A stretch of 63,336 bases of DNA, counting the filler, from Chrysochromulina tobinii (Eukaryota): NCBI GenBank assembly GCA_001275005.1. It is 5 parts of 5 records of this genome, joined end to end, with 100 filler letters (N's around TTAATTAATTAA, not from the genome) between each part and the next. Parts side by side here need not be neighbours in the genome. Positions count along the whole stretch, not along the records: positions 1 to 18,756 come from JWZX01000738.1; 4 more parts are not named here. One strand, 5' to 3'. The position numbers and the translations under genes were made by a program. How positions within the stretch are numbered: position 1 is the first letter of the stretch; the number at the start of each line of letters is the position of its first letter. This document shows positions 1-30,068 of this stretch, one piece after another. The notes beneath the pieces were generated by a model. The model saw only the letters and a program-made list of their open reading frames with translations, made no database searches and was not told where the DNA came from.

Positions 1-1075
1 AGCAGGGACCGGGTTGTCGCGCTCACCAGGCTGCTTGTGTAGCTCTGATGAACAGCAATTCAAGTCAAACACGCGACCAAGTTTACGGCACTGTTACTGC
101 CCGCTCGTTCACGCCATCCTCGGACAAACAACACGTAAAGTTCAACACGAGTGGGCGCGTGTTTAGGCCTCCTGCCCTCATCGCTCGCTGCGGGGCACTT
201 TTTGGACCTAGGGCGACCTTCCCTAATGCATCTTGAGAGAGGGTCAGTTGAATCGACACACAAGGTACCGACCAGCCACTACCACACGAAACACTGCCAC
301 GCAGTGGTCGCGTCGGCATTGCATGCTCAGCTGGGCCTGTCTAGCCAGCTCGTCCTGGTGCTGGGAGCCCTCATTCACAATTGCTCATTCACAGGCACTG
401 AACGGAACACAACCACACCTGCGGTGAGCTTGAGCTCAGCTTCACAGTTGGGTCTGGATCGGTTGGGATCAATATTGCCTGACAAATACATGGTGATGGT
501 CCGCTGAAAGCGAAAGTTTGCGAAAGCCCGCCCCGCCCCCGGATTTGCGGGCCGATACCGTACACTGATGTCCGCGTGGGGCCTTGCAACCGTGCTTTTC
601 CGGACGTTTGGGCGAGGCCAAGGGTAATCCATCGCCCCGGTAGGGTCGAAGACGTCCGAACGGTCGATATCTGAACGATCTATTATGATCACTGATGCGA
701 CTCACTCACACCACACACGCACGAATCAGCAATCACGGTCCACACGCGATAATATACTTTCGTTTCGGGAATCCCATATCTGGTGGACCGGACGGCGGAC
801 GAATACTTACCGGTCTATGTTCATTTCACGGTTTTCGTCCGCCCGTCCCACCTAAGCATGCTAAAGACCAACACGTCCTGGGGAATCTCCCCAGGACCTT
901 TCTCCCCGCTCACACGCCCCCCCAAAGCCTCAGAAATCCCATTGTAATCAGCTCGTCCTTATATCCGTGCGCGGCCATAGGTGTAGCCTGTTTCACAAGA
1001 AGTCAGAGCTCGCACCCTGCTCCTCTCCACGTGGGCGCAGATGTCGCAGGGTGACGGGCCATTTGCCGCATGCCT

Positions 1076-1740
1076 TCAGTAGGTCCACCACGGTTTCGTG
1101 TACTTGGCCTTTGGTTTCAGCAGCTCCGACGGCAGCTGCAGCTTCTGGACAATCTCATCGGGGATAGGGCTCTTGCACGTCCAGCCGCGATCCCTCATGT
1201 ACTTTGTGAGGCGTCGCTCCTCGGAAGCACTCGGCAGCTGCCGGTAGAATACAAACTTTTTCGACTGGCAGTGCTTGATGGCCTTCGAGAGCGAGACGAG
1301 CTTCGAGTTGTCCACCTTCATTTTCAGCCCGCCCTTGTCAAATGCAAAGTTGCCCACGTCGCAGTCGACGCCAGGCGGCGTCTTGGGCTGCGTCTTGGGG
1401 TCGACCAGATCCATTTCGAGCTTGTGCTCCTGGAATTTGAAGCAGAGCGTGTGCGCCGCGCCCTTCGCCTTCTCCTCGACGCACTTGAGGCCGTGGCTTT
1501 CGAGCACAGTCTTGATTTTCTCCTTCTTTTTCTGCACATCGTCCACCAGCGTGTCCACGTCATTCGCTGTCTCGCCACGGATGAGCCAGTCACGCAAGAT
1601 GCCTGCGCACATGAGTTCGAGTCACAAGTGGGTGCACACAAGAGAGGCAGAGGGGTGGAGGGGGCATGTCCGACTTGCAGCATACTGACCACCGTACACG
1701 CAGCCATCTGCGTCCCAAATTGCCGTGTGCGCTATCAAGA
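1076..1740 (-). other. Pol-beta-fold nucleotidyltransferase domain (CCA/poly(A) polymerase head-like) at C-terminus of the giant protein
   Basis: After splicing: VYGGILRDWLIRGETANDVD (hGGxxRD...DxD), third acidic residue in EMDLVD, DCDVGN (resembles DFTxN), RLTKYMRDRGW. Confidence 0.8.
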
Positions 1741-4700
1741 GCAAAGCCTGGTCCTTGTTCTGCGGACTGGGCGGCTTGGTCGGTGTGCGCAGCAGCATCT
1801 GGCGCGTCTGTAGGCCGCTACTTACCCCTTGTCCGTCGGCCGCTACTTCCGCTCCGCTGACAGTCTCCGGATTCAGCATGTTCATTTTCATCGAATCGCC
1901 GCCACCGGAGCTCCATTGGAGATTCTGCTCCAGTCCGAGCGTCTCAATGAGTTTGGCTCGCACACGGCCGACCACCGTACTCTTGAGCGCTCTCGCCCGG
2001 CCCGCCATGCGGATTCGCACGCGGAAAGGACCCGCCGCACCCTTGGTATCGCCGTCCCAGCTTTTGGTCTCAGCGTTCCATCTCTCGACCCTGATCCACT
2101 GGCCTTTGCCCTCTTTGCCCTCGAGCTGTTTGCGGTTGTCGTTCTCCGCTGCCCCAAGCGACTCATCGAGCTCATTACTGAGGTCCTGCTGCAGCACCTG
2201 CTTCACTGTAATGAATTTGCCAATTTTGCCGCTCGCTTCCGGCGGGATGGGCAAGATGATATCCTCTTCGCCGAGGTGCTCGAGCCGCCGGTTGATGCGG
2301 CGCGTGATCGCGGCCTCCATCGCCGCGGGGCACGTGACGATGAGGCTGCTCCTATCCTCCTTGCCGCTAGGCGCGTGACCAAAGTTGATCAAGGCCGACG
2401 GGAACTTAAGCCGGATCGTCTCAAAGAAACCATAGTTGCCGTCCTGGAGCAAGGCGTTGTGGCCCTTTTCGCCAAGGGGCAGAGTGAAGGTGGTGCGCTT
2501 GAAGTCCCTGATCACTTTGGCCATCTTGGAAGGGTCGGGTGCGCTGTTCTCGAGCATCTGCGCGTCAATGTACGAGGCTACCTGCGCCGACGGTTGCATT
2601 TTCCCACCGTCCTGTCATCCCACACGTGGTGGCAAAGGTGGAGACATTCACGTGCGCGTCAGAGCAGTGCAGCGCAATGAGCACACGCAGAAGAAGAGGG
2701 AGAGACGGACGCACCGTTTGGATGACGCTGCCAAACAGCACGAGTTGCGAGGTGTTCGAGGCGGGCAGGGCAAGCTCGGGCTGCCAGAGCGTCGAGTTTT
2801 TGTCGAGCTTGACCTCTGCGGCGCGCTGAGCATGCGCATCCTTATCCTCCTGCTGTTTGATCTGCGCCTTAGCTTGCAAGAGCTGCGCAATGCTTGCTCG
2901 CGCAGCGGTCGTGGACTCATCGTCGCCGTCCTTGTCCTCGCTATCATCTTGTCGCCCGCGCTCCTCGACAAACGCGCGGATGCCTTGCGCTTGCTCGTGC
3001 GAGTTCTCCGAGATCCAAATGAGGCCGTGGCTGAGGTCCTGCGCCTTCTTGGGCACTGCGACCTGGTCATAGTACGCCTTGCACAAGGCAGTGAGGAGGG
3101 CCTGTTTGAGCTCCTCTGGCGGCGACGTCTTTGCGTCCTTCCAATGAAACGGGTCATCCGCGGGATCGTACCCTTTTATGCCTTGCTTACCGAGGGTGGC
3201 TATGATGTGATCGTACACGTCCTCAGCCTCACCCAAAGGCTCAAGGGGTAGGTGGTGCTCCATACACCAGTTGTACCCTCTGCCCTGCGCCTCCTCAATG
3301 AAGCCCTTGACCGTGCGCAGCAGCGTCCAATGGTCGCCCGAGCTATCCTGGAAGGGCGACGTCCTCGCCCCCGATGGCTTGCCTGCATGCCCCGGGCCAA
3401 AAAAGCCCCAGAGTGAGGAAGCCCACGAGGGCGCCGCGGGCGTCTGCACCTGCCTCACCTTGCGCTCCTTATCGGTGGCGTTGTTGGTCTGCACGATCTC
3501 GCCCTTTTCAACTCTGGCCGTGTATTGCTGGCCCCGGCTCTCGTAGCTGACGGGCTTCTGGTCCTGCAGCAGCTGGCGCAGCCTGGCGACGACGGCCGTG
3601 TCGTGGATGTGACTGAACTGCCCCGAGCCATTCTCGACCTCGAAGCCGTGAGGAGCGTGAGACGGCGCCTTGGCGGCCGCCGCTGACTGGATCGGCTTGA
3701 GCGGCAGCAGCTTGACATGGTCGCTACTTGAGAGGGCTGCCGCGAGGTAAACCCCTGCAGCGAGGCATGACAACGACTCCGGCCGTCCCGGGTACGCGCA
3801 GTGGTAGAGGAAGAGGCCGAGGCGCACGCCAAGGCCGAGGTTCAGGTTGAGGCGGCCAACCGATGTCAGGAGGTCAACCTCCCGGCCGCCGATGGTCTGC
3901 TTCTCCAGGAGGCCAAGCGTGCGCAGCCGCTGCTTTGCCAATTGAACGGCCTCCTTCGGTAGCGACTCGATCATCTCGAGCGGCGGCGGAGCCTGCTTCG
4001 TCTTCGGGTCGGGTTTCTGCGCATCCACAAGGCGAAGGACGGTCTGCTCGATGTTGGCCTCGGTGATGGCCGCCGGCGGCTCGTCTACAAACTTAGCTTC
4101 GTCGTCGGCCGAGTAGAGGCGCACGCAGATGCCCGAGGACACGCGTCCTGCGCGTCCGGTACGCTGGCGCATCGATGACTTGGTAATCGACTTCGTGATG
4201 AGCTCCTGCATGTTCGTATGGTGGTTGAAGCGCGCGCGTCGCTCGAGGCCGGTGTCGATGACGTAGCGCACGTTATCGACGGTGATGCCCGTCTCGGCGT
4301 AGTTGGTCGTGAAGACGATGACGCGATCCTCGCGCGGGTTGAGGACCGCGTCTCGCTCCGCCGAGGTGAGCTTGCCGTGGAACGGGTGAATACCGACGAG
4401 GATGCTCTTTCTCTTGCTCTTGCTCTTGCCTCCACCCCAGCCACCACCACCACGCTCAACCGCCGCACCCGCCACTTTGTGGTCGGCGTCTGCGTCAACG
4501 TCGAGGTGAAAGGAGAAGCCCTTGCCGGGGCGGTCAAAGGTGGTGGCGCTCGGGTCAAAGGGGTCGGAGAACCGGCTGCGACAGAAGCTGAGTGCGCGAT
4601 TGATGTCGCCCTCCCCCGGCATGAAGACGAGCACGTTGCCGTCGGCCGAGCTCTGCAGCAGCTCGACAGCCTGCTCCAGCGCCACCTGGCAAAGCACCTT

Positions 4701-7700
4701 GCCCACGCCTGCGGAGCCGAGCTGGCGCGTCTTATCGTGCAGCGACGCGTCTGCGCTGCCGGCCGCCGCGCCCGTCATCATCGAGATGTCGCAACGTTGC
4801 ACGAAGACAGGGTACGTCTTGCCGGTGAGCTCCACTACCTCTGGTAGCGGCTTATCGGGCCCCTCGCGCAAAAAGTTGCGGAAAACCTCTTTCGAGCTGC
4901 CGATGGTTGCCGAGGTGATGATCACGCGCACATCCGTCGCCGCGACGAGCCGCTTGATGAGAGCGAGGCTCATGTCGATCTCCGCTGAGCGCTCGTGCGC
5001 TTCGTCGAGGATGACGGCCGCGTAGCCGACCGACTCCAGGGCCGCGGCCGCCGACGGATCGGCCGGCAGGTCCCCATCGGCATCTTGTTGATCTCCAGCC
5101 GGCGCCGAAGTGCGCGCAAGCTTCCTTGCAAACCGCTGGGGGTCCTTAGCAAGTTGAACGAAGAGGCCATGAGTCATGAAGCGGATTCGTGTCTCGCTCG
5201 AGGCCTTCTCCTCACCTCGGCCCACTGTGTAGCCTACCTCTCGGCCGGCGAGGGTGCCGCGCTCTTCGGCGACTCGATCGCAGAGGGATGACGCGTTCAC
5301 GCGGCGCGGCTGCAGCACAGCGACCTGCCGCGTCTCGTTGGGGTCCAGCACGTGGTCGAGCACATACTGCGGCAGCTGCGTCGATTTTCCCGAGCCCGTT
5401 GGTGCAGTGACAATCAGCACCTGATGCTGCTTGAGCTTTTTGATCAACTGCGCACACAGGTGGTGGAGCAGATGAGCTGGCAATCACAGCACAGTGAGTT
5501 GGCAATCAGCACAATGAGCTGCCATGGAGAGACAGTGAGCTGGCAGTCGATTGGCAGGTAAGGTGCCGCGCCTCACCTCCTCCTTGGCCGCATAGACGGG
5601 AAGACCAGCGTCGAATTGGCGCTTCTCGCGCTCAAACCTGTTGCGAAGATCCTCGTGAGCTGCATCCTCCGATGAACCACTCAGCTCCTTGTACGTGTGC
5701 TCGAATTCGCGCAGGCGCGCGGTGTAGTAGTTGACCGCCTTCCGGCCGTCGTCATACGCTGCCTTGGCGAACGCGTCCTCTTCCTTCTTGATCTGCTCTC
5801 TCAACTCCTGTGCCACCTTGGCCGCCTTCGCCGCTGCCTCCCGCTCGGCTGCACCCGGGTCGACGGCTTGTCCGGTATCCGTACCGAAGTCGACAATGTG
5901 TGTTGGCACGACTTGCTTCGTGTGTTGCCACACTAGAACAGATCCGGCAGGAGGGTTGCTGGCGTTGCCGCCGAGGTTCTGCAAGCATGCCGGCGAGAAG
6001 GCGACAGGGTTGACCAAGCCGTTCATGACGAGGATCGAGCCGCTAGTTCTTGCATATGCGTTCGGCGTGCTCATGTTTCCGTACACGCTGTACACGCCGC
6101 GGCCCCACGCAAGGCCGTTCACACTACCAAAGATCTTCTCATCGAAGCCGTTCAGCGCGATCGAAGTCGAACGCCATACGTCGGGTGTCCCATGAAAGAC
6201 GTCCCCGAGCTCGCGTTGCAGCGCACCCTTGGCATGCAGCGCGCCCTTCTCCTTTTCGTACTCGGCCTGCCGCACGCCCACCTTACACCGGCGAATCGAC
6301 GTGATCACGCGCCCCTGAGGGACCAGCGCCGTCAGCCGCCTGTACTCGTGGTCCGACGGGGGCAGCGGCATGATCGGCGGCGGTGGTGGCGGTGGCGGCG
6401 CAGCCTTCTTGAGCGTCCACTCGCTGCCAAACTTTGCCTGAGGCCATGCCTGCTGATCCAGCTGGCTCAGCCTGGAGCACTTGTTCAGCTCCGCCTGGAT
6501 GGTAGCGCCGAGGTCTTCGGTGATCTGAACCTGCTGCACGTAGCCAGAGACGTGCGGCCGGCGACACGCGTAGCACACGAGACGCATGGGGGCGTAGTAC
6601 TCTCAGCGGACGAGAGAAGCGCAGGGATCGAGGGAATTGACAATGTGGAGGCACTCAGGAGAGTGTCGGTTGGCTAGGCACTCAGGAGAGTGTCGATTGG
6701 CGAGCGCACCGCGCCGTTGAGCACGCTCTGCACCGCTTGCTGCACGAGCGGCTCCTTGACCATCTTGGCCAGAAAGCCCGAGATGCGCTCTCGTGGGTGG
6801 CGGAACTCGCGGTAGGCACCCTGCTCGGTGGTAGGCATCGTCGGGTTTCCACCGCCCTTGTCGACTGCGGCGACGAGGGCGGCCCATGAGACCCAAGTCA
6901 GGTAGGCGGCCTCGGCGCCGTGCGGCTTGAAGTGCATCGAGTTGTAGTGCTTCGCCACGTGCGCAAACGCGAGCCCTCCCTCCTTAGGACGCGCAACGTA
7001 GAGGACATACTTGCCTTGACGGCCCGCGAGGTAGATCTGGCGCGCGGGCGGTTTGGAGAAGAGAGCCCTGAGGGAGCCCTTGTCCAACTTGAAGCCCGTC
7101 TCCTCGCAGAACTCGCGGCATGCCACGTCGAGCGGCAATTCGCGCGAGTGGTCTCGCTTGCCGCCGAGTGGTTTGAGGCCCTCGCCATATTCCATACCGA
7201 GGAGTACTTCCGGCTCACCACCATGGCCGCGGCGCAGCGTGAGTGCGCCGGCTGAGCTGAAGCCGCCCTGCTCCTTTGGCTGCAGCTGAGCAGGACGCAG
7301 CTCCTTGGGCGCCGTGGCGTCGTAGCTCTCGCCATCGTCACCACGGGGTATTCCGCCGCTACTGCCGCCACCGTCGCCACCCGCCGCTGCGCGCCCAGGG
7401 TACCATCTTGGAGCGGCTGTTGGAGGATAGGAAGGCATCGGATCCGCACCACCATCGGGTGGGCCTTCAAGCGGAGTGGTCACCTGGAAGTCGCACGAGT
7501 TGAGGCGTCCCGGTCGGTGAGTCACACGATGCTGGCAGTAGCTCAGCGGCATAGCGCATATGCAGGCACTCTTGCCGCAGCGTGCGGGCAGTACGCGCGT
7601 GCGGGCGGGCGGTACGGGCGGTATTACAATGCCAAAGACGCCCTCCCTCTGCACCCCCATGACCGCGGCCATGCCGGAGCCAAAGATTCGCTGGCCAGCG

Positions 7701-8559
7701 CGCAGATTCCAGTTGCCTGCGTTCGCACCCCACACATGGTAGTTCAAGGAGCACGCGTCCTCGCCGACACGGCCGAAGACCACCCGGTCGGGGAACATGT
7801 CACGCAGGTTGTAGATGGATTCGTCAAGTGCATCGATGAAGCGCTGGTACTGCGCGTGCGTGAAGCCTTTGCTCTGCGCCGAGGGGTGGCAGCGCAAGCG
7901 GTGTGAGGTGTATATGAAAGGGCAGTAAGATATGGTGGCGCAGGCACAGCGGTCACCAGCCACTGATTTATGGCGAGGCCCTTGCCCAGGCGTGGCTCAC
8001 GGCCGTCGTCACTTGGAATGGTCGCCTTGGCGTCTTGCTTTCTTAAGAGGATGCCGACCAGCTCACCGATGCGCTCGCGGACGTGGGCAATGTAAACCTC
8101 GACGGAGTGTTCTTCGATTGCAGGTGCAGCCGGAGCATGCATGGCATCCGGGCTGCCATAAATTTCCCCACGCTGACCGCGATGACTATCTGGGGCGTCT
8201 TTCTCTGCTTCAGACTTTGGGGCGGAATTCGTGCGGGTTGCGGATGGCGGGCCGCTGCCGCCGTTGGGTCTTCGTTGCTTAATCTGCTTCTTGATTTCCA
8301 TGGAGTGGCCTCGGGGAATGCCCTCTATTTGGAGCTGTTCGTGCATCTCCTGAAGTTCATCGTCATCGTAGTTCAGCAGTATTTCCAAACTGCTGAAGCC
8401 AGACCGCCGCATGATTGCCGCGTAGGTTGAAGCGTTCTCAACCACATGCGGATGCGCCGATTCTGTAAGGAATCCGTCGAGCGTTTCGTCGGGCGCGGAG
8501 CACGCGGAGGACGGCCTAAAGGCGCCGGGCGCGTTGAATACGACATGCGGTGGCGGCAT
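1076..8559 (-). CDS. Giant 7-exon multidomain protein (~2,250 aa): SAM - macro-like? - Nudix - PARP catalytic - DEAH-box RNA helicase (WWE-like insert) - KH-like - nucleotidyltransferase
   Basis: Exons 8559-7957, 7873-7628, 7483-6710, 6533-5577, 5447-2715, 2611-1690, 1602-1076 join in frame via GT-AG introns (7874-7956, 7484-7627, 6534-6709, 5448-5576, 2612-2714, 1603-1689). Two junctions rebuild conserved motifs: LPVYAAKEE|LIKKLKQHQVLIVTAPTGSGKSTQLPQY (DEAH N-terminus) and GCVYGG|ILRDW...NDVD (NTase signature). The Nudix-PARP join (acceptor 6534 or 6531) is the least constrained. Confidence 0.8.
2715..5610 (-). other. DEAH/RHA RNA helicase (RecA1, RecA2, HA2, OB-like) of the giant protein
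   Basis: Motifs APTGSGKSTQLPQY, QPRRVNA, VGY, FMTHG, ILDEAHER, TSAT, LVFMPG, TNYAETGITVDNVRYVIDTG, QRTGRAGR, GDHWTLL. Confidence 0.97.
5886..6370 (-). other. PARP-family ADP-ribosyltransferase catalytic domain of the giant protein
   Basis: Ordered motifs: EYRRL...ITSIRR...EYE; VFHGT (6186-6197); SIALNGFD; AWGRGVYS; NAYA; ILVM; VLVW...QVVPTHIVDF. Confidence 0.85.
6750..7260 (-). other. Nudix hydrolase domain of the giant protein
   Basis: SAGALTLRR...EVLLGMEYGEGLKPLGGKRDHSRELPLDVACREFCEETG, a Nudix box (G..x..E-x7-REUxEExG) with catalytic glutamates intact, ~7096-7166. Confidence 0.9.
8275..8490 (-). other. SAM-like domain at N-terminus of the giant protein
   Basis: LDGFLTESAHPHVVENASTYAAIMRRSGFSSLEILLNYDDDELQEMHEQLQIEGIPRGHSMEIKKQI fits the SAM pattern (fL..l.L..Y...f...gf.sl..L......L..l..Gi..GH..kI). 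Confidence 0.65.
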
Positions 8560-8831
8560 TTCTCGTCGAGGTCGTGCTCTTCGCGAGCGCGGCGCACAAA
8601 ACCCGAGCGATGTGGACTCGCTACTGCCGCGATACCCGCCAATGTGTGAATGCGTGTGTGGGTGAATGCTAACACGTTCACGTTCATGCTCACTCGGCAA
8701 GGATGCCTTCTTTGTTCCGCTCGTTAATTAAAAGGCGCCGAAACGCGTGTTTCCCCACAGGGGGAGAGGTCCCTGGAGCCGATGGCTGCCGCGCGCGCTC
8801 GGCTTCTATTGCCCGTGCGATCGACTGTAAG
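8560..8831. promoter_or_regulatory. Probable bidirectional promoter between the two multidomain genes
   Basis: 272 bp between divergent ATGs at 8559(-) and 8832(+), with an AT-rich patch GTTAATTAAAA near 8723. Inferred from geometry only. Confidence 0.5.
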
Positions 8832-11354
8832 ATGCCCCAACCCAATCTTCTGAAGTATAAGCAAAGAAAAATGGAGCAGGAACTGCTCGCACGCGTGCTA
8901 CTTGCGCAAGATGACACTATGAGCGGATACGCCACGGCTCTGCGCGAGATACGCGCCGGCCACAAGCAGACGTGTTGGATCTGGTGGATATGGCCCACAC
9001 TGGCAGGTGTGCGCGAGACCAGCAAACCAGAGTTTTACGTGCCGGACGCAGAGGCTGCCTTGAAGTGGATTCGACATCCGAAGCTTGGCCCTCGCTTTGT
9101 CGATATCACGCGCCAAGCGGTGGACCACCTTGACGCTGGCGTGAGTCCATTACGGCTGTTCGGCTGGCAAGCCGACGTGGATAAGTTTCACGAGAGCGTG
9201 ACACTCTTCGGTGAGGTTACCAGGTGCAGCTACCCCGATCAAATTCGGCTTGAAGTTGTGTCGCTGTGTAATCGTGCGCTGAAGGCGCTGCAGCTACCAC
9301 CCCACCAGAAGACGCTCGAGGTGCTGCAACGGACGGGCGAGTCCTTCAGGCCGCAGCTCGACCCCCACTCGTTCGATCGCTCCATGTCGAATTCTCAATT
9401 GGCGTCAACACCTCCTCCTACCGAGTTGGCCGTCTTCCTCGCCGAGCTCGGCCTCGCCGCGCACACGGCGGTGATGCGCGCCGAAGGTTTCGATAGCATT
9501 GCCGCCCTCGGCACGATGGACAGTGACGATGCCACCGAGATGCGCTCGGCGCTCGCCGCCCGCGGGGTGCCTGGAGTCGACGTCGACCGCATTCTCGGCG
9601 CGGCAGTAGCCTGGGTGCACACCCCCCAAGCCGAGAATGTGCCGAGAATGCGCCCGGTGCTCCAAGCGGCCGGCAGCGGAGCCGTGACTGGAACGCCTGT
9701 GCAGCCGCAGCCACCGCCCATGTCCCAGGCCGCCTCCGTGATAGCTGTGGCGAGGGTCGCGGACGATTCTCGTCTCCTCTCGCAGCAGCCTCACCCGACA
9801 CGTGGCGCTGGTGGTGCGCCGGCTCTAGAGGTTGCAGCGGCCTTCGACGGTAGCACGCGTGCTGCAGGTGAGGCGAGTGGCGGAGGAGGTTCAATGAGGT
9901 CCCACACAGGGCCCCCTGCACAGGCATTCCAGCCACCGCAGGCGCAGGTCGCGGCCGCCAGGACCCCCGCCACGGTACCAAGGTTCGCGACGACCACAGT
10001 TCGACTGTGGGATAACGACGCGGACGTGGCCCAGCAGGCTGACAATTGCCTGCGGAGGATGAACGAGGCCACACTGGCGGATCCGGCAACGGCCGAGAGC
10101 CTCAAGCCTCTGTGCACCGTGGACGCACCCGTCCGAGATGGTGAGGCGATTCGTGGCTGGTCGTGCGTACGGATGGCGAGTGTGGCGCTGCCCGTGCCCT
10201 TAGCGCCACGCCTCCTCGCGCTCGATGTAGAGATGATAGAGAGGCGTGCCGACGGCGTGCGGCTGCCGGTGAGCGCCGCCCTCATCTGCTACGACCTTTC
10301 GCCACGGCAGCCGCAGCGCGTGCTCTTTTCTGGCCTTGTGGACCCGTCGGACTTTGATCGCGAGTGGCTGAGCGGCCCCATGGCTTACGACTACAAGGAG
10401 CGCTGGGTCGGACTCGACTACATGGCGCTGCGTGCGGCGCGTGAGCGCGGCGAGATGACGCCGGTGCGCGACCTCCAGCGCCTCGTACAAAAGCACATGC
10501 ACAGCGCCACCTATCTCGTCGGCCACTCCCTCAGTGGTGACCTCAAGGTGCTTCGCTTACACGGCCCCGAGCTTGAAGCGCGCGTCGTCGATACGCAAGC
10601 GCTGTACCCGCTGCCAGCGGGAGTCGGCCACGCGCGTCTCAAGGCCCTTGTGGAGGACATGCTACCGGCCGAGGCGTGGCGGCACTTCCAGGCGGTAGGC
10701 GCGGCGCACCCACCTGATCAGGACGCCAATGCGGCACTCGAGCTCGTGACGCGTGAGCTCGAGCTTCTCCTCGAGCAGCCTCAGCGCCGTATCGGCATGT
10801 GGAGCAACAGCGACGGTAGCGGCGGCAATCGCGGTGGCTGCTCGAAGCGTCCAATAACGGCCAACGATTCGCGGGCGATTCGAACGTTGCTAGTGGCCGA
10901 GTCAGACGTCGGACGTCTGATTGGGAAAAAGGGCTCAAAGATCGAGCAGCTTCGCGCCGACAGCGGTGCGCAACTCGAGCTTCTCTCACAAGCCGAGAGC
11001 CACACGCGGGGCGGGAGCACAGACGATACAAAACGAGTGCTGCGCATCGAGGCGCCTGACTGGGCCACGCTTGACCGTGCGTGTGCGCTCATCCATGCGT
11101 CGGTGCTGGTGCCTCCCGTTGTTGCCGGCATGGAGCATCTGACTCAGACCCCAGCCGACGACGTTGCCGCGGTGGTCCAGGGTTCGGCGCGGTATGAGGA
11201 GGATCGCGTGAGCACATCGGTGCGATCCTGTGGCCCCTCCCGAGCGAAGACGCTGTAGCTCCGGCTCAGGTCAGTGGCCCCGATGAGCATGGGCGGCATG
11301 GGCGCACCGATGGGCGGTGCTGCGCCGATGGGCGGTTTTCCGATGGGCAAGTAA
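8832..11354 (+). CDS. DUF1810 - SAM - DEDDh (REX/ISG20-like) 3'-5' exonuclease - KH domain protein
   Basis: DUF1810: GYATALREIRAGHKQTCWIWWIWPTLAG...HPKLGPRF...LFG...DVDKFHESVTLF (~8923-9300). SAM: LAVFLAELGLAAHTAVMRAEGFDSIAAL (~9421-9610). DEDDh: LALDVEMI / LVGHSLSGDLKVL / VVDT / HPPDQDANAALEL (~10200-10760). KH: VGRLIGKKGSKIEQLRADSGA (~10880-11100). A likely 78-nt intron (11192-11269, GTATGA..CTCAG) removes the TAG and adds a Met/Gly-rich tail ending at TAA 11354. Confidence 0.85.
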
Positions 11355-12026
11355 GCGCGCACGCAAACGGATCTTTGCTTTACGGTCCGTGGCAAATGAA
11401 GTGCCGGCCACTAATACTGCACAGTTTCTCGGTCATGGGCGCTCATGCAACTACCGTACGCTACACGCAGTTTTCTCGGGGGGGTCGGTCCCGGTCCTGC
11501 ATTGTGATTGTCACCTCAGAGGGCCGGCGGGCGTCAGCCACTGTGTTGAAACACCATAGGGTAACTACCTGTGTAGTGAAACCCTCCCCCTAGGTCAAAA
11601 TCTTGCGCCGGGCAGCGGTACGGTACGCAATGATAGAGCGAACACTCGACAGGTACCTACACACAGTTTTAACGCTCGCTTCACGAGTGCGGATCGCGCA
11701 AAACCCCGAGCGAGCCCTGGCAGGAAATCAGTTTCGTCGCGGTCCCCCGAAGCGCTCACCTCACCGGCATACTCAACGGACCGGACGGGACGGCTCCGCA
11801 CCCCTCGGTCAACACAAGAATCACAAGTACGAAGTAGAAGTACTGCTCGCTCTCTCGTGTCACTCCATTATGCTAGTGAGGTTAATGGGAGAGACAAATG
11901 CACAGCGTTCTGCACCCGCTGGCGCGGCGGCCATTGGTAGTCATCGGGTACGCCCGCCATGTCGCCCTTTGCGCCGCCACGGCATCGAGCAACAGGTCGC
12001 CGCGGCGCAGCCCAACGGCCACCAGG

Positions 12027-12899
12027 CTATGGGGCACGGGCGACCGTCTCGCCATCCACTTCGTCTAGACTTGGTTTTGCCTTCTTGTCGCCCCCGCCCG
12101 TGTCCCACTTGGATTTTCGCTTCACGACGGACGCGTCGGTCGCCGCGGCTGGCGGCGCTGCCGTAGAGGTGCCGATGCCGGCGGCGCCGCTCGGCGCCGC
12201 CCTTGGCTGCTGCTGATGCTGCTGCTCGAGGAGGCCCGAGGAGTGAAATTGCACACGCTCGCCCGGCTTGCGGCTCTGTCGCTCCTCGTACTCGCGCCGC
12301 GCGCGCTCGAGTTCCTCATAGAACTCGTGGGGCTCCACGGCCGTCGGGTCGTAAATCTCGCTCGGGTAGTTGCTGCCATTCTCAACAACGTCCATGAACG
12401 CGACCAACTTCTCGAGCAGGTCGGGGTTGCGAAAGCGCTTGGAATTGCGAATGTAGTCATTGACGCGATTGCCCTCCGTGGAGGACTTCACAAAGCCAAG
12501 AAACTTGGCCATGACCTTTGGGTTGCACTCGCCGGGCGGCGAGGGCGGCACCTGGAAGGACGGACGCACGTCCTCCTTTGGCGCAGGAGCGTCGGGCGTG
12601 CTGGAGGTGGTGCCATCGGCGTCCGAGGCGACGGCGAGCTTGGCGCTGCGCTTCACGATGGACACCTGAACGCTGCCCAGCCGCCGCGTGCCGCTCTTGA
12701 CGATGTCATCGTCGTCCAAAGAGACGCCCAGGTCCCTCGCAGGCATGGGCGGTTTGTCACCATTGCGGTAATCTACAATGGAGAGTAGGCCCGACGCGGG
12801 CGCCGGTGCGGCCGCGTTGCTGGTGCCGGCGGACGCCGGGGCCTCGTCGCCCGCGCTCTCCATCGGCTCGGGTGTCTCGGAGTACGCGACGAGGGACAT
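12027..12899 (-). CDS. SAP30BP: SAP30-binding protein (HCNGP-like)
   Basis: PPSPPGECNPK...IRNSKRFRNPDLLEKLVAFMDVVENGSNYPSEIYDP...FYEEL and C-terminal KRKSKWD; N-terminal MSLVAYS. Confidence 0.9.
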   Translation of the reverse strand: MSLVAYSETPEPMESAGDEAPASAGTSNAAAPAPASGLLSIVDYRNGDKPPMPARDLGVSLDDDDIVKSGTRRLGSVQVSIVKRSAKLAVASDADGTTSSTPDAPAPKEDVRPSFQVPPSPPGECNPKVMAKFLGFVKSSTEGNRVNDYIRNSKRFRNPDLLEKLVAFMDVVENGSNYPSEIYDPTAVEPHEFYEELERARREYEERQSRKPGERVQFHSSGLLEQQHQQQPRAAPSGAAGIGTSTAAPPAAATDASVVKRKSKWDTGGGDKKAKPSLDEVDGETVARAP

Positions 12900-13041
12900 G
12901 GCGTTCACAGCTGCTTCACAGTGGAGAGAATTTTCAGACTAACTTCGGCGCGGCAAAAGAATAGGAATTCACGACACCACGGGACCTGTCGTCTTGCCGT
13001 GATGGCAATTTAATTAACGCGAAGGTGAACGTGAGGAATTC

Positions 13042-13890
13042 ATGTCCGAAGTCACTCTCGACTTCATCGCTCTCCTCCGCCGACTCGTCGCGGACGTGCC
13101 GTCTCGCGGCGCCACCCTCAACGCGGCGTTGCAGCAACTCGCCTCCCAGGAGCTGCGTGACCTCGAGCCGGACGCGTCGCTGCTCGAGGCGCTGCTCTCC
13201 GTTCCCACCACCGCATGGGACTCCTTCTCTGCCGACGACTTGTACAAGTGGCACACGTTGCTGACGGGTGTGCTGCAGATCCCCGAGGTCGTCAGCGCCG
13301 CACCTGCGGCCGCCGCGTACGCCACCGACGCGCTCATCGACGGCGCCTTCGCGCGAGCTGCCCTGCCGCCCGCCGAGGAGACAGCTCAGGCGATGACTCC
13401 AGGCAGCTCGCTGCCTGGCTGCGTGAGCATGGTGAGCACGGGCGCTTCGAGCGCGAGCACGCGCACCGCGGCCCGGGTGGGAGGCCCGGGAGGCGGCGCC
13501 GCCGCCGGGAGTGCGCGTGCGCGACCGGCTGGGCCACGCGGCCGACCGTCAGCCCCCATCAGTGATGCGACACCACAGGCGAAGCAGGCGGCCGAGCTTG
13601 GGGCGGTGCGTGCGCTGCTGCACTGGCTGTACCGGAGCGGCGACGTGGTCGTAAAGTTCGCGGATGTTGACGATTTTTTCTCCGTGGCAACCACTAGTCA
13701 GTTCACTAGTCCCCCAGTTGGCCCTCTCGAACTCAAGTCGGCGTCGGCCTTCGTGCTTGGCCGCAACTTCCTTGTACCATTCGACGTGATTCTCACTGAC
13801 CCGCTCGCACGAGTCGAGAGGGACCTTGGCGCGGTCTCTGCGAAGCTTGAAGAGCTCATAGCCATGCAAGCACCTAAAACAGATGCTTAA
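13042..13890 (+). CDS. Hypothetical protein (282 aa)
   Basis: ATG-initiated ORF with coding-like composition, divergent from SAP30BP; no recognisable motif. Confidence 0.6.
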   Translation: MSEVTLDFIALLRRLVADVPSRGATLNAALQQLASQELRDLEPDASLLEALLSVPTTAWDSFSADDLYKWHTLLTGVLQIPEVVSAAPAAAAYATDALIDGAFARAALPPAEETAQAMTPGSSLPGCVSMVSTGASSASTRTAARVGGPGGGAAAGSARARPAGPRGRPSAPISDATPQAKQAAELGAVRALLHWLYRSGDVVVKFADVDDFFSVATTSQFTSPPVGPLELKSASAFVLGRNFLVPFDVILTDPLARVERDLGAVSAKLEELIAMQAPKTDA

Positions 13891-14090
13891 TTGCATGAGG
13901 AGCCTCTCAAGGAGCTCGCGACGACGCTATCGCTGCCAGTCCCGTGCAGCTAATACGGGACCATTTTCTTCTCGCGCGAACAGTGCCGTGTGTACCCGCG
14001 CACAGCGTCATGTTCCGTGACGTGAACTTTGACACAACTCGTGGGTTTACCGTAATCCAGTATTCACAGTGCAGGCCGCCGACTTTTTTA

Positions 14091-16218
14091 ATGGGCTGCG
14101 CCCAGGCGCGTCTCAAAACCAAGGTCGACGTGCGCGACCTGGAGTCGATTGTGCGCACGGGCGACCTCATTCTCTTCTCGTCCAAGCACGCTGCAGCGCA
14201 GGTGACCAAGTGCTTCACGGCGTCGACTTGGGATCACTGCGGCATGGTGGTCAAGTTCTCGTCGCGGCATGTCTTCATCCTCGAGTACGCAGGCGGTGTC
14301 TTCCTCTACCCGCTCTTTACACGGCTCTACACGTACTACGCCATCCAGGGCCGGGAGATCGTGCTGCGGAGGCTGCTACCCGGGCAGGACCGCGTCGAGA
14401 TGCAGAGGCGCGTCGAATCCTTCGTGCGCGGAGTGCTTGGGCAGAAGCCGCCGTCGATCGAGGAGATCCTCCTCGCCGTCCTGAAGCAAGAGGGCGTGGT
14501 CTCCTCGTTCCTCGCACGCCTCGCGGGCACCAACGAAAAGGAGCACGTGGACAACCTCGAGACCCTCTTCTGCTCAAAGCTGATCGCGTGCGTGTACAAG
14601 GAGGTTGGCATCCTAGGTAAGCACCGCAAGTCGTCGGACTTTCTGCCCAAGCACTTTGCGGAGGAGTACGACGAGTACCTCGACCTGCAGGCGGGCGCGC
14701 TGCTCGGCCCCGGGCTGCCCATCAATTTCATGAGCGTCGCAGAGGAGGTTGAGAACATCCGTCAGCGGATAGTCGAAGAGGAGCGTAAGAAGCCCGAGGC
14801 GATCGTGCGGGCCGTGTCGCAGTTCTACGTGGCGGCGCGCTCGGGCGTCGGAGGGCTCGGCGACGAGATCTCGCGCTCATTCCGCAATCTCGAGCGCGGC
14901 TTGCATGGCTGGTCCGAGGCAGCCCTGATTGCCTATGATTGCCTATGATTGCCTAGGATTGCTTAGGATTGCTTAGGATTGCTTATGATTGCTTATGATT
15001 GCCTACCTATAATTGCATGGCTGGTGTGAGGCAGCCCTGATTGCCTATGATTGCCATTCGCCCTGAGAACCCTGAGCCCGGAGTGCCAGTAGCCCTGATT
15101 GCCACTCATGACGGATGGCCTCTGATGGCCACTGATGAGCGCTGATTGCCACTCATGACGGATGGCCTCTGATGGCCACTGATGAGCGCTGATTGCCACT
15201 CATGACGGATGGCCACTCATGACGGATGGCCGCTGACGAGCGCTGATTGCCCCTCTCATCAGGTCCGAAGCGGCCGAGCTCGCACTTTCACGCACCTCGA
15301 GCTTCGCCAAGTTCGAGCAGCCCTTGATGGCAGAGGCTCCCGAAGCAGAGGCTCCCACAAGTGGGCGCCGTCGTGGGCGCGCCATCGCCCCGAACGGCAC
15401 CGCACAGGACGACAGCGCCCACGACGGCGCTGATGCTCACGACGGCGCTCCGACTCACGACGACGCCCACGACGGCGCGACAGCTCACGACGGCGCCCAC
15501 GACGGGTCGAGTCCACCCCTCCGCGGTGAGGAAGCCGCCGAGCTAGCTGAAGCGCGAGCGGCCGCCATGGACGACTCTCAGGCGAGGGAGCGCTTCGCCC
15601 GAGCCCAATCGCAGAGTCAGCGCGGCGCACATGCTGCACAAGGGTCAAGTCGGTACGATCGGCCGCCCGAGCGCCTGCCCAACGATGAGACACAGTTGGC
15701 CAACAATGGTGGTTACAACGCGTCTCAAGTGGCAGTGGCGCTCGATGACGACGTGGCGGCAGCGCGTGCGAACGGAGCGTTGACGCCGCTGCGGCGCAAC
15801 AGCAGCAGCGTGGCCTTCGATCTGTCGCGCGTCGGCAGCAGCGGAGGGCTGCGCTTGCAAGGGGGAGCTCTCGTCGACGAGGTGAAGGATGTGTCGCCGT
15901 GGTTCCACTCCCTCCTAATTGCCTCCGGATTGCCTCCTAATTGCCTCCGGATTGCCTCCTAATTGCCTCCGGATTGCCTCCTAATTGCCTCCGGATTGCC
16001 TCCTAATTGCCTCCGGATTGCCTCCGGATTGCCTCCTAATTGCCTCCGGATTGCCTCCTAATTGCCTCCGGATTGCCTCCTAATTGCCTCCGGATTGCCT
16101 CCGAATTGCCTCCTAATTGCCTCCTAATTGCCTCCAGGTGGAGAATGTGTCGGATGGCGGCGTGTACGCTCCAAGCGCCCTCAACGGCTACAGCCCGCCT
16201 TCGGCTCCACCTTCGGTT

Positions 16219-16249
<31 letters not shown>

Positions 16250-16293
16250 ACCAGGAGGTACCGAGGAAGAGCCTGCTGAGTGCCTTCCAATGA
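14091..16293 (+). CDS. Permuted papain-like amidase (YaeF/YiiX, NlpC/P60 superfamily), 3 exons
   Basis: RTGDLILFS...WDHCGMVV (His) precedes LFCSKLIACVY (Cys), then DFLPKHF. Starts MGC. Introns 14912-15262 and 15882-16137 give an in-frame low-complexity C-terminus ending TGA 16293. Confidence 0.8.
14925..15250 (+). repeat. Intronic tandem repeats (GATTGCCTAT/GATTGCTTAG)n plus longer CTGAT-containing units
   Basis: Directly visible arrays inside intron 14912-15262, which ends CCTCTCATCAG. Confidence 0.9.
15911..16135 (+). repeat. Intronic 22-nt tandem repeat (CTCCTAATTGCCTCCGGATTGC)n
   Basis: About ten units directly upstream of acceptor CCTCCAG at 16137. Confidence 0.95.
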
Positions 16294-17016
16294 GCGACTA
16301 CGGTGTGCATCTGAGCGAGTACGGTTTGCATCTGCATGTGACAAGAAGCGGACTTGAGGTAACATCGACGAGGGTACAGTTCTCGGCCCCCCCGGCGTAC
16401 CGCCGCCCTGGAAGCGGAACGCGAACCCGGGAGCCTAGGGTAAGGTCACGGGCGAGCGGTGTGGGTGGCCCGGGGTGGTCGCGCCCCTTGGCGTCCGGTG
16501 TGGGTGGCCCGAGGCTCCCCCGGCCCGTCGGCGGAGCGCCGCGATCTACTACGCTACTACCGGTACCAACTGAGGCCTTACGAGGCCCGCCCACGGCGTG
16601 CGGCTGCGGGCGGTCCGGTCACGTGTGGAGACACCGGGTTCAACGGTACATTCTACATACGCATACGGCGATACGGGCGATAACCGGCGCGCGAACGTAC
16701 CCGGGGTTACCGCGACGTCCGCGTGGGCCCACTGGCGTGGTTGGTCCGAGGTAATACGCGATAGTCCGAGGACCAGGACGGATCATGTCGGGGCGCAGCG
16801 CGGAGCGGGGAGCGCGCCCGGGGTCGTCCCCCGCCGCCGCCCGCGCCCGGGGACGGTACGCGTTCATACGCGCGGAGTCCGCGGACCGCCGGACGCGATT
16901 AATACACGACAGATTACACAATACACATGAGATTACAGCGTGGGTACGCGCGGTGATCTAATCGAATAATCAGCTTGGTCTCAGCTACTTTGAACTCGAA
17001 ACGGTCAGTACACGTG

Positions 17017-17773
17017 CTAACTCGTAACTGCACCCTGCTCGCTGCTGGGGCCGGGCTCTGCTAAATCGCCGCGACGTTCGAGCCACCTTAACTCGTAGAA
17101 CTCCTCATAACTGCTGCCAGCTGCAGCAGCTGCTGCTGCTGCGCGTCTGCGAGGGGAATCACATCAGCTGTGAATGCTCTCACGTAAGCAGCGCTCTCAC
17201 TGCACCTTCCCGATGAGCGGATCGGCCGCACGCACGACCAGCAGCTGGTCGTAGATACCCACGCCTATGGGCGTCTTGCTGCCCGGGATGGGCAGCGGCT
17301 TCGTGCCGAGCGCCGACGCGCCACCACCAGGCGCCATGTTGGCCGTTTTGCGATAGGAGGCCGTGCCAAAGTGTGGACTACACACAGAGAGAGTCGATCG
17401 CACGCATGTAAGCACGGTCATCGAGGGCCGCGGGGCGCGCTGGAGGAGAAGGCTGTACGCACATGAACTGCGCTGCCTGCTCGCCCATGTTTTTACCAGT
17501 GTGCTCCGGCCGGACGCGCGGGAATGTGCCACCATAGCCGACGAGTGGCGGCGGCAGTGAGTGCCGCTCCCTTGGCGGTACCCACGGATCGTCCATTTTG
17601 ACAAGGCCATGTGTGTCACGGCCGCGGATCGCTTCCTCGAATAGCGGGCCTGGGACGATAGAGGCTGGCCGCCGGCCGACGCGATCATGCTGTCTGATGC
17701 GATCGCGCGTGAGCTCAGTGGCTTGAGAAGTCGGCTCGTTGAAGATCGTTGTCCACAAGACGTTGCCGCTCAT
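17017..17773 (-). CDS. Hypothetical protein with a P-x-x-GYGGxxP motif (possible ciliary microtubule-inner-protein type); multi-exon
   Basis: ATG 17773; MSGNVLW...PLVGYGGTFPRVRPEHTGKN. Continues through two probable short introns (~17380-17405 and ~17147-17200) to TAG 17017; splice sites uncertain. Confidence 0.45.
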
Positions 17774-17969
17774 GGCTGCCGGACCGCCACTGCGCTGCGA
17801 TCGAGGCCTGTGCTTGCGGAACCGACTCTCGAGCAAGACGAGTTCCTGCGACCGTTGAGTCGTTCCAACAGCTCAAACCCCGCGCCGCTCGCCTTCTCCC
17901 CCCCAGCCTTTTTGGGAAGTGTGTCGGTCGACTTGACGCCAGACCCCCTGCCCTCCTGGCAACCCGGCC

Positions 17970-18569
17970 ATGCCCTCGGCCAGGCAGCCGCCGTGGATGC
18001 AGGAGCCCGCCGACGACGAGGACGGGGACGACGACGTCGACGAGCTCGATCCCATTGGGCGTAACACGCTCAAGCTGCGGAGCCGCTCCATCGTGGAGTC
18101 GATTGCGGTCGGGGCATCACCGCCAAAGTTGCCCCCTTCCAATTATTCAGGCCAACTATCGGCGCGCGGAGCGGGCGAGAATGTGTACAGGAGCAACGCC
18201 TATGCGCAGCAGCCCGCGCCCGGGGGCTTCTCAGCAGAGGCCGCCCGCTTTATGCCGGCAACGCCGCAGCCCTACCATCCACAGCATCCACCGCCTTACC
18301 CGCGGCCATCCGCGTATCCAACTGCGCAGTCGAGCTTAGGTGGAGGGCAGCACCCGCCGCCGTTGCAGCAGCAGCAACTACCCTCCATGGGGCAGAAGCG
18401 GTGGGAGATTAATGATACTATGATGCATCAGTCTTGGGGTACGCACGGCTTCGCCCCTTTCCTGTCCAACGGCCGCCCGAGCAGCACTTTGCATGCACGT
18501 AGCGCAAGCGCTCTCCCCTCACGTGTTGCACGCTTCCCGCCGGCGCAGGTACGGTGCTGCGCACGCTGA
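17970..18569 (+). CDS. Hypothetical Pro/Gln-rich protein, probably 3'-partial
   Basis: 199-aa ORF with a donor-like CAG|GTACGG near 18549 just before the contig end. Confidence 0.45.
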   Translation: MPSARQPPWMQEPADDEDGDDDVDELDPIGRNTLKLRSRSIVESIAVGASPPKLPPSNYSGQLSARGAGENVYRSNAYAQQPAPGGFSAEAARFMPATPQPYHPQHPPPYPRPSAYPTAQSSLGGGQHPPPLQQQQLPSMGQKRWEINDTMMHQSWGTHGFAPFLSNGRPSSTLHARSASALPSRVARFPPAQVRCCAR

Positions 18570-18756
18570 ATAGGAGCTGATGAGGAGGCCTACCGCATGC
18601 TCGCGCATTACCCAACGTCTTAACGCCCGAAATACGAACCGCGCATGATCTCGATCTGTGGGCATGTCTGCATGGGCCTTTAGGCCGGGCCAGAGTGACG
18701 TCTGACGAAGATGTCACAGGATCCAGGATGATCCATACTAAATGTAACCCGCCCGC

Positions 18757-28404: not shown

Positions 28405-29930
28405 CTATGCGCGGGTGACTTGAGTGTGCTCGCTGAAGGCCGATGGGTCGACGACGGTCGCTGATGGGATCGTGATCGACGCGAGAGAGGTGCAGTCGTA
28501 AAAGGCGTCGTAACCAATCTGCATCACCGACTCGGGGATCGTGATCGACGCGAGCAAGGTGCAGCCGAGAAAGGCTTGCTCACCTATCTGCGTCACCGAC
28601 GCGGGGAGCGTGATCGATGCGAGCGAGGTGCAGCCGAGAAAGGCTAGCTCACCAATCTGCGTCACCGACACGGGGAGCGTGATCGACGCGAGCGAGGTGC
28701 AGCCGTGAAAGGCGTACCCACCAATTTGTGTCACTGACTCGGGGATCGTGATCGACGCGAGCGAGGTGCAGCCCTGAAAGGCAGCCACACCAATCTGCGT
28801 CACCGACGCGGGGAGCGTGATCGACGCGAGCGAGCGGCAGCCCCAAAAGGCCCACGTGCCAATCTGCGTCACCGACGAGGGGAGCGTGATCGACGCGAGC
28901 GAGGTGCAGCCGTAAAAGGCGCTCTCACCAATCTGCGTCACCGACGAGGGGAGCGTGATCGACGCGAGCGAGGCGCAGCCGCGAAAGGCGTCCTTACCAA
29001 TCTGCGTCACCGACGCGGGGAGGTTCGCGACCGACTTGAGCGACTCGCAGTCTCCCATCTTGAGCTCTCGCAGCGCCGTCAGCCTCGCCACAGACGCCGG
29101 CAGCGCCTCCCCCTTCCACTTCTTCCCGCTCAGATTCAGCCCGCGCACGCGCGCCCCTCCTCCTTGTCCGCCGTGAGCGCCCTGCCGAGCCCGTCCCGGC
29201 CGCCCTCCACCCCCGCCGCCCACTCGGGATCCTCCAGGATCCACGCGTCCTCAGACGCCCCGATGAGCTCCACGTCCGTCGCCCCGATGAGCTCCAGAGC
29301 CGTAAAGGTGACTTGAGTGTGCTTGTCGAAGGCGCATGGGTGGACGAGGTTCGCCGATGGGATCGTGATCGACGAAAGCGAGGTGCAGACCTTAAAGGCG
29401 TCCGGACCAATCTGCGTCACCGACTCGGGGATCGTGATCGATGCGAGCGAGGTGCAGCCGTAAAAGGCGCGCTCACCAATCTCCGTCACCGACGCGGGGA
29501 GCGTGATCAACGAAAGCGAGGTGCAGTCGTAAAAGGCATGCCCACCAATTTGCGTCACCGACTCGGGGAGCGTGATCGACGCGAGCGAGGTGCAGCCCTG
29601 AAAGGCAGCCACACCAATCTGCGTCACCGACGCGGGGAGCGTGATCGACGCGAGCGAGGTGCAGCCGAGAAAGGATTGCCCACCAATCTGCGTCACCGAC
29701 GCAGGGAGAGTGATCGACGCGAGCGAGCGGCAGCCGAGAAAGGCTTGCCCACCAATCTGCGCCACCGTCGCGGGGAGCGTGATCGTCGTCAAAGATTTGT
29801 AACTTAACGAGCTACCCTCCCAATTGGCGGGACCGTGCACAAACAGGACCTGACACAGTTCGACGAGTGGATTCGGCGGGGGCACTGAGGGACAAAAGCA
29901 CCGCAACATGAACTTGCATGCATGCAACAA
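28405..29930 (-). CDS. BspA-type (TpLRR/LRR_5) leucine-rich repeat protein; two repeat blocks split by a frameshift at ~29154-29157; probably 5'-partial
   Basis: 23-aa repeats LASITLPASVTQIGxxAFxGCTS in ORFs 29136-29930 and 28405-29244. One extra G in the GGGG run would join ...ADKEEG to ARVRGLNLSGK...LPASVARLTALREL. Confidence 0.85.
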
Positions 29931-30068
29931 ATAGACTTTTCGGCCAACGTTCTCGCAGGCGCGTGTGAGAGGTGCAGCGTGTGCAAGGGGCTGGGAGAGC
30001 CCCTTGGCGTGTGTGAGGAAGGCGAGTACATCATTTTGAGCGCGGATATGTGCTCACGCGCCTACACC

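Follow-up and report, generated by a model that had tools for sequence, protein, structure and literature searches.

PARP14, an antiviral protein that acts on protein as well as nucleic acid, unites a writer and an eraser of ADP-ribose in one polypeptide (PMC10499325), and the same union in one chain appears in PMC13224862. Here we analysed a 63,336-nucleotide (nt) stretch of Chrysochromulina tobinii DNA (the window; assembly GCA_001275005.1), along which all positions are numbered, and within its JWZX01000738.1 part (1-18,756) a minus-strand gene predicted to encode a single chain of SAM-like, Nudix, ADP-ribosyltransferase (ART), DEAH helicase, KH-like and nucleotidyltransferase (NTase) domains. 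An earlier note on this DNA had judged it very unusual for one chain to hold an RNA helicase, a terminal transferase, an ADP-ribose writer and a potential eraser; PARP14 provides a precedent for the pairing of writer and eraser, and the unusual feature is their conserved joining to a DEAH helicase and an NTase. The architecture is real, conserved and apparently undescribed, since we found no description of the fusion in the literature, where reviews of ARTs and RNA repair, or supplements, may list it.

Like PARP9, PARP14, PARP15 and PARP12, the family carries an ART without the catalytic glutamate, and its best matches in the PDB are PARP12 and PARP14, although PARP12 has about 24 residues before the last strands that the family ART lacks. 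A macrodomain N-terminal to the ART, as in the macro-PARPs, is also found in 12 of 21 relatives, and KH domains occur in the same chain. In macro-PARPs, however, the ART is C-terminal, whereas here it is internal (residues 594-762 of 2,253) and followed by the DEAH helicase, KH and NTase domains; PARP14 contains no Nudix, DEAH helicase or NTase domain, and its macrodomain slot is occupied here by a permuted DUF7831 domain. WWE and RRM domains were not found in the Chrysochromulina protein. The next-best helicase matches were DEAH11/DEAH12 (DEAH-KH-RBR E3) and the rotifer-type DEAH-PARP-WWE proteins, with KH likewise following the helicase. They differ in that no IBR/RING was detected in the open reading frames (ORFs) of the window or in the 18 family proteins scanned, and in that the DEAH-PARP-WWE proteins have the ART after the helicase and the Chrysochromulina protein has it before. 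The head/neck fold, the GG.RD and DxD motifs and the third Asp are shared with the class II NTases (CCA-adding enzymes and bacterial poly(A) polymerases), but the tRNA-binding body/tail of CCA enzymes is not present, and the place of the RRD motif of CCA enzymes is taken by GVD. Judged by the architecture read from its sequence, the protein belongs neither to the macro-PARPs nor to DEAH11/12 nor to the CCA enzymes; by analogy, it may work most like a PARP14 grafted on a DEAH11/12-related helicase in which the RBR has been swapped for an NTase.

The coding sequence extends from the ATG at 8559 to the stop at 1076 in seven exons. The six GT-AG introns of 83-176 nt proposed earlier all have GT and AG at their ends, with lengths of 83, 144, 176, 129, 103 and 87 nt, and their removal leaves 6,762 nt in one stop-free frame, that is 2,253 residues and a stop, in agreement with the predicted ~2,250. 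What had been counted as five ORFs proved to be seven exons in six stop-to-stop ORFs, while their joining into one frame held. Exon 1 (7957..8559, residues 1-201) begins with the first ATG of ORF 7744-8727, and RNA contigs end at 8579-8602, which cannot prove a start codon. Frame translation and RNA contigs define exon 2 (7628..7873, residues 202-283), exon 3 (6710..7483, 284-541), exon 4 (5577..6533, 542-860), exon 5 (2715..5447, 861-1771) and exon 6 (1690..2611, 1772-2079); exon 7 (1076..1602, 2079-2253 and the stop) follows from frame translation, and RNA contigs extend beyond it to 673-712. The G+C content at third codon positions ranges from 0.64 to 0.82 over all seven exons.

The RNA evidence consists of contigs assembled from six runs (X1, X2, X3, X9, X10 and X14), not of single molecules; the runs were drawn from 14 mixed-culture RNA runs containing >90% of sampled words and come from one year and one habitat, possibly from one campaign. 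All six predicted junctions were found spliced in these contigs. Introns 1 (7874..7956), 2 (7484..7627) and 4 (5448..5576) were spliced in 6/6 runs, introns 5 (2612..2714) and 6 (1603..1689) in all four runs covering them, and intron 3 (6534..6709) in four of the six. Intron 2 is in frame and stop-free and would add 48 residues if retained. The junctions quoted earlier, LPVYAAKEE/LIKK at the helicase join and VYG/GILRD at the NTase join, are those of the spliced frame, and the helicase-to-KH-like join across intron 5 is equally in frame. Intron 6 is a phase 1 intron within the YGG/ILRD motif; the short side of its joint measures only 28 nt in all four runs, and the motif that its removal restores is contiguous in 20 homologues. 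Furthermore, a 1,728-nt contig of run X3 reaches from the Nudix exon to the ART exon across the spliced intron 3, and a single 4,614-nt contig of run X14 connects the ART, helicase and KH exons. Short tandem repeats lie within introns 2 (7580-7620, 21-nt unit), 3 (6648-6709, 27-nt unit) and 4 (5473-5545, 20-nt unit).

Intron 3 separates the Nudix from the ART, and transcripts ending within 6534-6709 had been named earlier as the sign of two genes; the intron is spliced in 4/6 runs. Both AGs of a tandem CAGCAG acceptor (6531-6536) are used, giving an intron of 176 or 179 nt; in the longer form, seen in run X3, the acceptor lies 3 nt further, the frame is kept and the Nudix-ART linker differs by one residue. 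The intron was also found unspliced, as the sole assembled form in X1 and X9 and beside the spliced form at similar depth in X2, X14 and X10. Retention introduces a stop after residue 552, and an in-frame ATG at 6587, inside the intron, is available for the remainder. Two genes or products could therefore be envisaged, a 552-residue SAM-DUF7831-Nudix protein from the intron-retaining RNA and an ART-helicase-NTase protein from ATG 6587, and a family member divided over two ORFs (contig L142) would fit such an arrangement. We nevertheless regard this as highly improbable: the bridging contig of X3 joins the two halves, Nudix and ART lie in one chain in 19-20 of 21 homologues, and three alternative paths (two acceptors and retention) may make the assembler keep only one. 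Moreover, introns 1, 2 and 4 are also unspliced in some contigs (X3 figures 12.9 vs 13.4, 8 vs 14.8 and 11.2 vs 41.2), so pre-mRNA or library DNA suffices to explain unspliced intron 3. The same unspliced forms, together with full splicing in X3, weaken the idea that intron 3 is specifically retained, although a regulated short isoform may exist and is compatible with the contigs.

None of the splice joints is present in two further data sets with related sequences, X15 and X16. Eleven of the 12 indels listed there (at least 21 in total) fall within introns and the exonic one is of 3 nt. Among the 40 of 184 substitutions listed, a biased subset taken without a control gene, four are intronic, and the 32 changed codons comprise 12 synonymous and 20 non-synonymous changes and no stops. 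A 67-nt skip in exon 1 of X16 was discounted on account of its non-canonical ends and a 21-nt side. A T>A change at position 1978 (T1983S) is shared by four RNA runs and reflects either variation between strains or alleles or an error in the assembly. At 8517-8561, 8164-8223, 6729 and 4305, RNA contigs of several runs match the gene briefly and then diverge, which suggests that the genome holds paralogues or shuffled 5' segments at other places.

The gene belongs to a family. The helicase exon was searched against proteins of 1,596-4,555 residues, and among the best 120 of 241 matches the top 21 score 244-1,265 bits and the next 183 bits. Members were found in oomycetes (Phytophthora boehmeriae, P. 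nicotianae, Pythium oligandrum, Aphanomyces stellatus), chrysophytes (Ochromonas danica, Pedospumella encystans) and Kipferlia bialata. With the Chrysochromulina domains as queries, the Nudix was detected in 19/21 of these proteins, the ART in all 21 and the NTase in 20; the remaining 99 listed long helicase matches yielded no Nudix, no NTase and one weak ART. The order Nudix-ART-DEAH-HA2/OB-KH-NTase is constant, and the slot N-terminal to it holds a macrodomain in 12 relatives, the permuted DUF7831 in one and neither in eight, as counted with profiles built from the same sequences. The macrodomain of one relative matches PARP14 (E 4.2e-42), and no other macro entry occurs in the best 60 of 65 rows. 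Independently of gene prediction, the complete order is read in one uninterrupted ORF on each of two metagenome contigs, L136 (2,027 codons) and L137 (2,058 codons). The claim of a single Nudix-PARP-DEAH-KH-NTase chain is thus borne out by the RNA splice joints, 21 homologues of the same order and two unbroken ORFs, and we are highly confident that the gene and its conserved protist family are real. The conserved protist architecture is (SAM)-(macro or permuted DUF7831)-Nudix-mono-ART-DEAH-KH-KH-NTase.

A FastTree phylogeny rooted on HrpA was built from 378 columns of the helicase core in 56 sequences, with P0078 omitted because it had no motif match. In this tree the family forms one clade with support 1.0 on a long stem. 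Its sister clade comprises the DEAH-PARP-WWE proteins (0.975), and both together join the DEAH11/12 RBR helicases with support of 0.76, compared with 0.95 in an earlier tree. In the sister clade, a 2,094-codon ORF (L143:1-6282) encodes a DEAH helicase, a Cys-rich stretch, a PARP domain, two WWE domains and the same NTase in another order. ORFs of their own also encode the NTase behind different N-termini, which may be WWE-like or CCCH (L134:2686-3603 (-), L142:3-1217 (-) and L138-L141), and in L134 and L142 this ORF adjoins the fusion gene on the opposite strand. No fused record of the Chrysochromulina gene was found among the helicase-exon matches listed or by the ART-exon search, which returned one fragment among longer proteins; this is weak evidence that public annotation splits the gene. 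An alignment search confined to proteins of 3,858-5,000 residues gave no family member. Narrow searches by pattern or tblastn found the family ART or NTase in no viral contigs, prokaryote genomes or phages, and PADLOC matches were few, several of them to helicase models, and not placed on proteins.

The ART (5871..6377, residues ~594-762) was identified with a family profile. Built from 14 sequences, the profile matches PARP12 (E 1.9e-9), PARP14 (2.6e-7) and tankyrases (1e-6) in the PDB; single-sequence PDB and Pfam searches did not detect the domain, and a single-sequence model of its exon reached a predicted local distance difference test (pLDDT) of only 42. Among the NAD+-pocket residues, H655, G656 and Y689 are present in 22/22 family rows and Y701 in 21/22, while position 740, V in the Chrysochromulina protein (H655-Y689-V740), is V, I or F in 20/22 rows; E occurs in no row at 740 and in none at 739. 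The third-triad glutamate of the poly-ART class (PARP1/tankyrase, H-Y-E) is thus missing from all 22 rows. The earlier PARP call stands as an ART of the PARP family and is refined to a glutamate-less H-Y-V mono-ART, nearest in its PDB matches to PARP12/14. A helical, coiled-coil-like linker (5583..5861, residues ~766-858) follows, with helices in a low-confidence model and matches in 10 family members. Upstream, the Nudix hydrolase domain (6848..7270, residues ~355-495; box GG..REFCEETG) lies just under the Pfam cut-off (NUDIX E 0.0013). Its box, GGKRDHSRELPLDVACREFCEETG, agrees with GX5EX7REUXEEXGU except that D replaces the first E, and the box is intact in 20/22 family rows, degenerate in P0003 and missing with the whole domain from P0013. 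A four-sequence profile used to probe the subfamily gave a single weak PDB match (E 0.82); the Nudix is a potential ADP-ribose eraser.

Between the SAM-like and Nudix domains lies a domain that the earlier list of domains had overlooked (7463..8118, residues ~148-290, interrupted by introns 1 and 2); the Nudix, PARP, DEAH, KH and NTase of that list stand. It has 114 homologues among 1.84 billion representative proteins, is encoded in 13 viral contigs, nine of them labelled GVMAG, and received no name from Pfam or PHROGs. Each half of it matches the opposite half of DUF7831 (PF25176; E 5.8e-6 and 8.1e-7). When the domain was permuted, the hhalign match rose from 39 columns at 87.7% to 114 columns at 96.8% (E 2.4e-10), compared with at most 3.6% for ten column-shuffled controls. 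A direct Pfam scan nearly misses the relationship, with DUF7831 found in 1/34 members at E 0.1, whereas in the phage family used for the comparison (99 members) 20/20 tested pass the Pfam cut-off for DUF7831. The domain is thus a DUF7831 homologous in both halves and circularly permuted, found here in the macrodomain slot of a eukaryotic fusion and in giant-virus contigs. Profile searches of the PDB gave no credible match for either the permuted domain or DUF7831. A DUF7831 model resembles a cluster automatically named "putative Macro domain" (Atlas template modelling score 0.56 over 101 residues), and SLOG/YAcAr and DUF4326 domains are fusion partners of DUF7831. From its position, this weak fold likeness and the context, we infer a macro-like, ADP-ribose-handling module. 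Chrysochromulina is a host genus of giant viruses, and the permuted DUF7831 occurs in long uncharacterised giant-virus ORFs (L001-L013), in L013 beside a helicase; in other proteins its fusion partners are OTU, UCH, PIF1 or Exo_endo_phos domains. The SAM-like domain at the N-terminus (8269..8496, residues ~22-97), likewise called earlier, can be kept only tentatively, with SAM_2 at E 0.043 and SAM_1 at E 0.31, both under the Pfam cut-offs; the segment is conserved among close relatives.

The DEAH helicase (2609..5603) comprises RecA1/2 (residues ~852-1335), with the Pfam DEAD and Helicase_C models above cut-off, and an HA2/OB-like part to ~1772, for which Pfam matches were obtained in relatives; motifs I, II (DEAH), III (SAT) and VI (QRxGRAGR) are present in 22/22 rows. 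For the C-terminal part, the last 475 residues of the close homologue P0001 were modelled with AlphaFold2 from a 20-row alignment (pLDDT 79, predicted template modelling score 0.76). This model contains two KH-like folds (FBP KH3-KH4 Z 8.7; PCBP2 KH3 Z 7.2), corresponding to residues ~1800-2005 (1910..2527) of the Chrysochromulina protein, from which the GxxG loop, present in several homologues, is missing. The class II-type NTase head/neck follows (1079..1771, residues ~2052-2253), with the motifs YGG.RD, D2093, D2095, D2143 and DxDxxN. YGG, RD, DxD, the third Asp and Asn are found in 21/22 rows, the remaining row being a partial record. The NTase of the model matches CCA-adding enzymes (Foldseek E 4.5e-4; Z 11.4 with 3h3a, root-mean-square deviation 3.5, 165 aligned), and giant-virus NTase-like proteins are a better structural match (E 2.9e-7). 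The CCA-enzyme body and tail are not present: about residues 5-207 of the 418 are matched, and the protein ends ~200 residues past the NTase start. Pfam PolyA_pol did not match the NTase, and PHROG 1614 matched it at E 4e-4. By language-model features, 28 of 30 Atlas matches of the NTase are clusters of Gad2 (PF26128) at a likeness of 0.96; the family name comes from Atlas labels and appears in none of the Pfam scans, so the likeness is one of features only, and Gad2 itself is a stand-alone phage anti-defence protein.

These fold matches bear on two other accounts of the protein. One is housekeeping RNA repair or quality control, in which the helicase would open damaged ribonucleoproteins (RNPs), the ART with the macro and Nudix domains would clear phosphorylated or ADP-ribosylated ends, comparable to Tpt1/KptA with Macro, and the CCA-like head would restore 3' nucleotides. 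The CCA-adding enzymes are top fold matches of the NTase, each of the six runs yields RNA contigs from the gene, and PMC7824862 places KptA-ART, Macro, Nudix and CCA-like NTases together as components of RNA repair in jumbo phages. Such a role is rather unlikely, however, for a family that is patchy among the named matches and swaps its N-terminus freely, whose ART is PARP12/14-like (KptA is in none of 48 PDB matches) and whose NTase has no CCA-enzyme body and tail. The second account is a sensor-signalling enzyme, where the helicase would detect foreign RNA, the NTase would make a second messenger or nucleotidylate proteins, and the ART, macro and Nudix domains would tune an NAD+/ADP-ribose signal. 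It is consistent with the resemblance of the NTase to Gad2, with its occurrence without a helicase (the reverse strand of L134 and L138-L141) and with the fusions of DUF7831 to SLOG/YAcAr and DUF4326. We consider it unlikely, since the fold is of the CCA head type, no cGAS or OAS is among the 50 fold matches listed (an absence that weighs little), and the KH pair lies immediately before the NTase and so favours an RNA substrate.

Above these and the two-product arrangement we place an RNA-directed surveillance or antiviral machine that would tail and ADP-ribosylate its targets with a reversible mark, the reading that we favour although it stands a little short of an even chance. All its enzymatic steps are read from motifs and folds. 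Points in its favour are the PARP12/14-like ART, the PARP14 match of a relative's macrodomain, the likeness of the NTase to giant-virus NTases and to Gad2, the N-terminal module that viral contigs also encode, and the 20 non-synonymous among the 32 changed codons. The KH pair and the DEAH helicase would attach to a target RNA or RNP and translocate along it, and the adjacent CCA-type NTase head would add untemplated nucleotides onto the RNA 3' end as a loading tail or mark. The ART would use NAD+ to place single ADP-ribose units on RNA ends or bound proteins. Reading or removal of this ADP-ribose mark may fall to the macro or DUF7831 module near the N-terminus, and the Nudix could cleave released ADP-ribose (or a cap) to AMP; with these removal steps the mark would be reversible and self RNA spared. 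The SAM domain may serve oligomerisation of the complex.

Several observations weigh against this surveillance reading. Its basis is one of motifs and folds, and the contigs carry no expression level. Within the six runs the complete mRNA is covered by no RNA contig or read, intron 3 is commonly unspliced (5/6 runs), and the substitution tally is a biased one. The permuted domain compared with ten family macrodomains by hhalign at every cut point gave nothing significant (at most 0.4%), and neither did the profile comparison of DUF7831 with macro (1.1%). Eight of the 21 relatives have neither macro nor permuted DUF7831, the Nudix box of one is degenerate, and another is devoid of the Nudix. 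Tankyrases score almost equally with the ART, and its PDB matches lean towards human PARPs. The resemblance of the NTase to housekeeping CCA enzymes is just as strong, and the domain could act on a protein or on a small molecule. According to 10.1101/2023.05.01.538930, the phage protein Gad2 counters Gabija, has a predicted NTase domain and works by a mechanism that is not known.

Elsewhere in the window, a head-to-head gene on the plus strand (8832/8871-11258) begins ~270-310 bp from the start codon of the fusion gene and encodes a DUF1810 domain (E 3.7e-19), a weak DEDDh exonuclease and KH, together with a SAM-like segment resembling that of the fusion gene (phmmer E 0.0013); this neighbour is possibly another RNA/ADP-ribose gene that shares the promoter. 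Among six clusters looked up for neighbouring genes, two include Chrysochromulina parva proteins within 90% identity, which places the window in a Chrysochromulina-like haptophyte. Further away, two ORFs at 28408-30053 (-) contain BspA-type leucine-rich repeats, and a Copia-type reverse transcriptase fragment (RVT_2, E 1.3e-15) lies at 57726-58295 (-).

In a wider, more tentative reading, which we think possible but doubtful, the family would be an ancient single-chain innate-immune machine of haptophytes, stramenopiles and metamonads, in which the DEAH-KH part finds viral RNA, an NTase of Gad2/giant-virus type tails it, and ADP-ribose caps or marks it, with an exchangeable eraser slot that in Chrysochromulina is filled by a permuted DUF7831 traded with giant viruses. 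If this is true, DUF7831 and its permuted form would constitute a new class of modules that read or erase ADP-ribose and that both sides of the conflict employ. As it stands in for a macrodomain, the permuted form overlooked by Pfam offers a functional hint for DUF7831. The architecture would also extend a PARP14-like logic of writer and eraser beyond animals and combine it with an RNA helicase and with a terminal transferase. Furthermore, proteins of this family have so far been annotated just as hypothetical, Nudix or PARP, and with four mutable catalytic sites they provide a conserved candidate for virus defence in microbial eukaryotes, in algae as well as in oomycetes.

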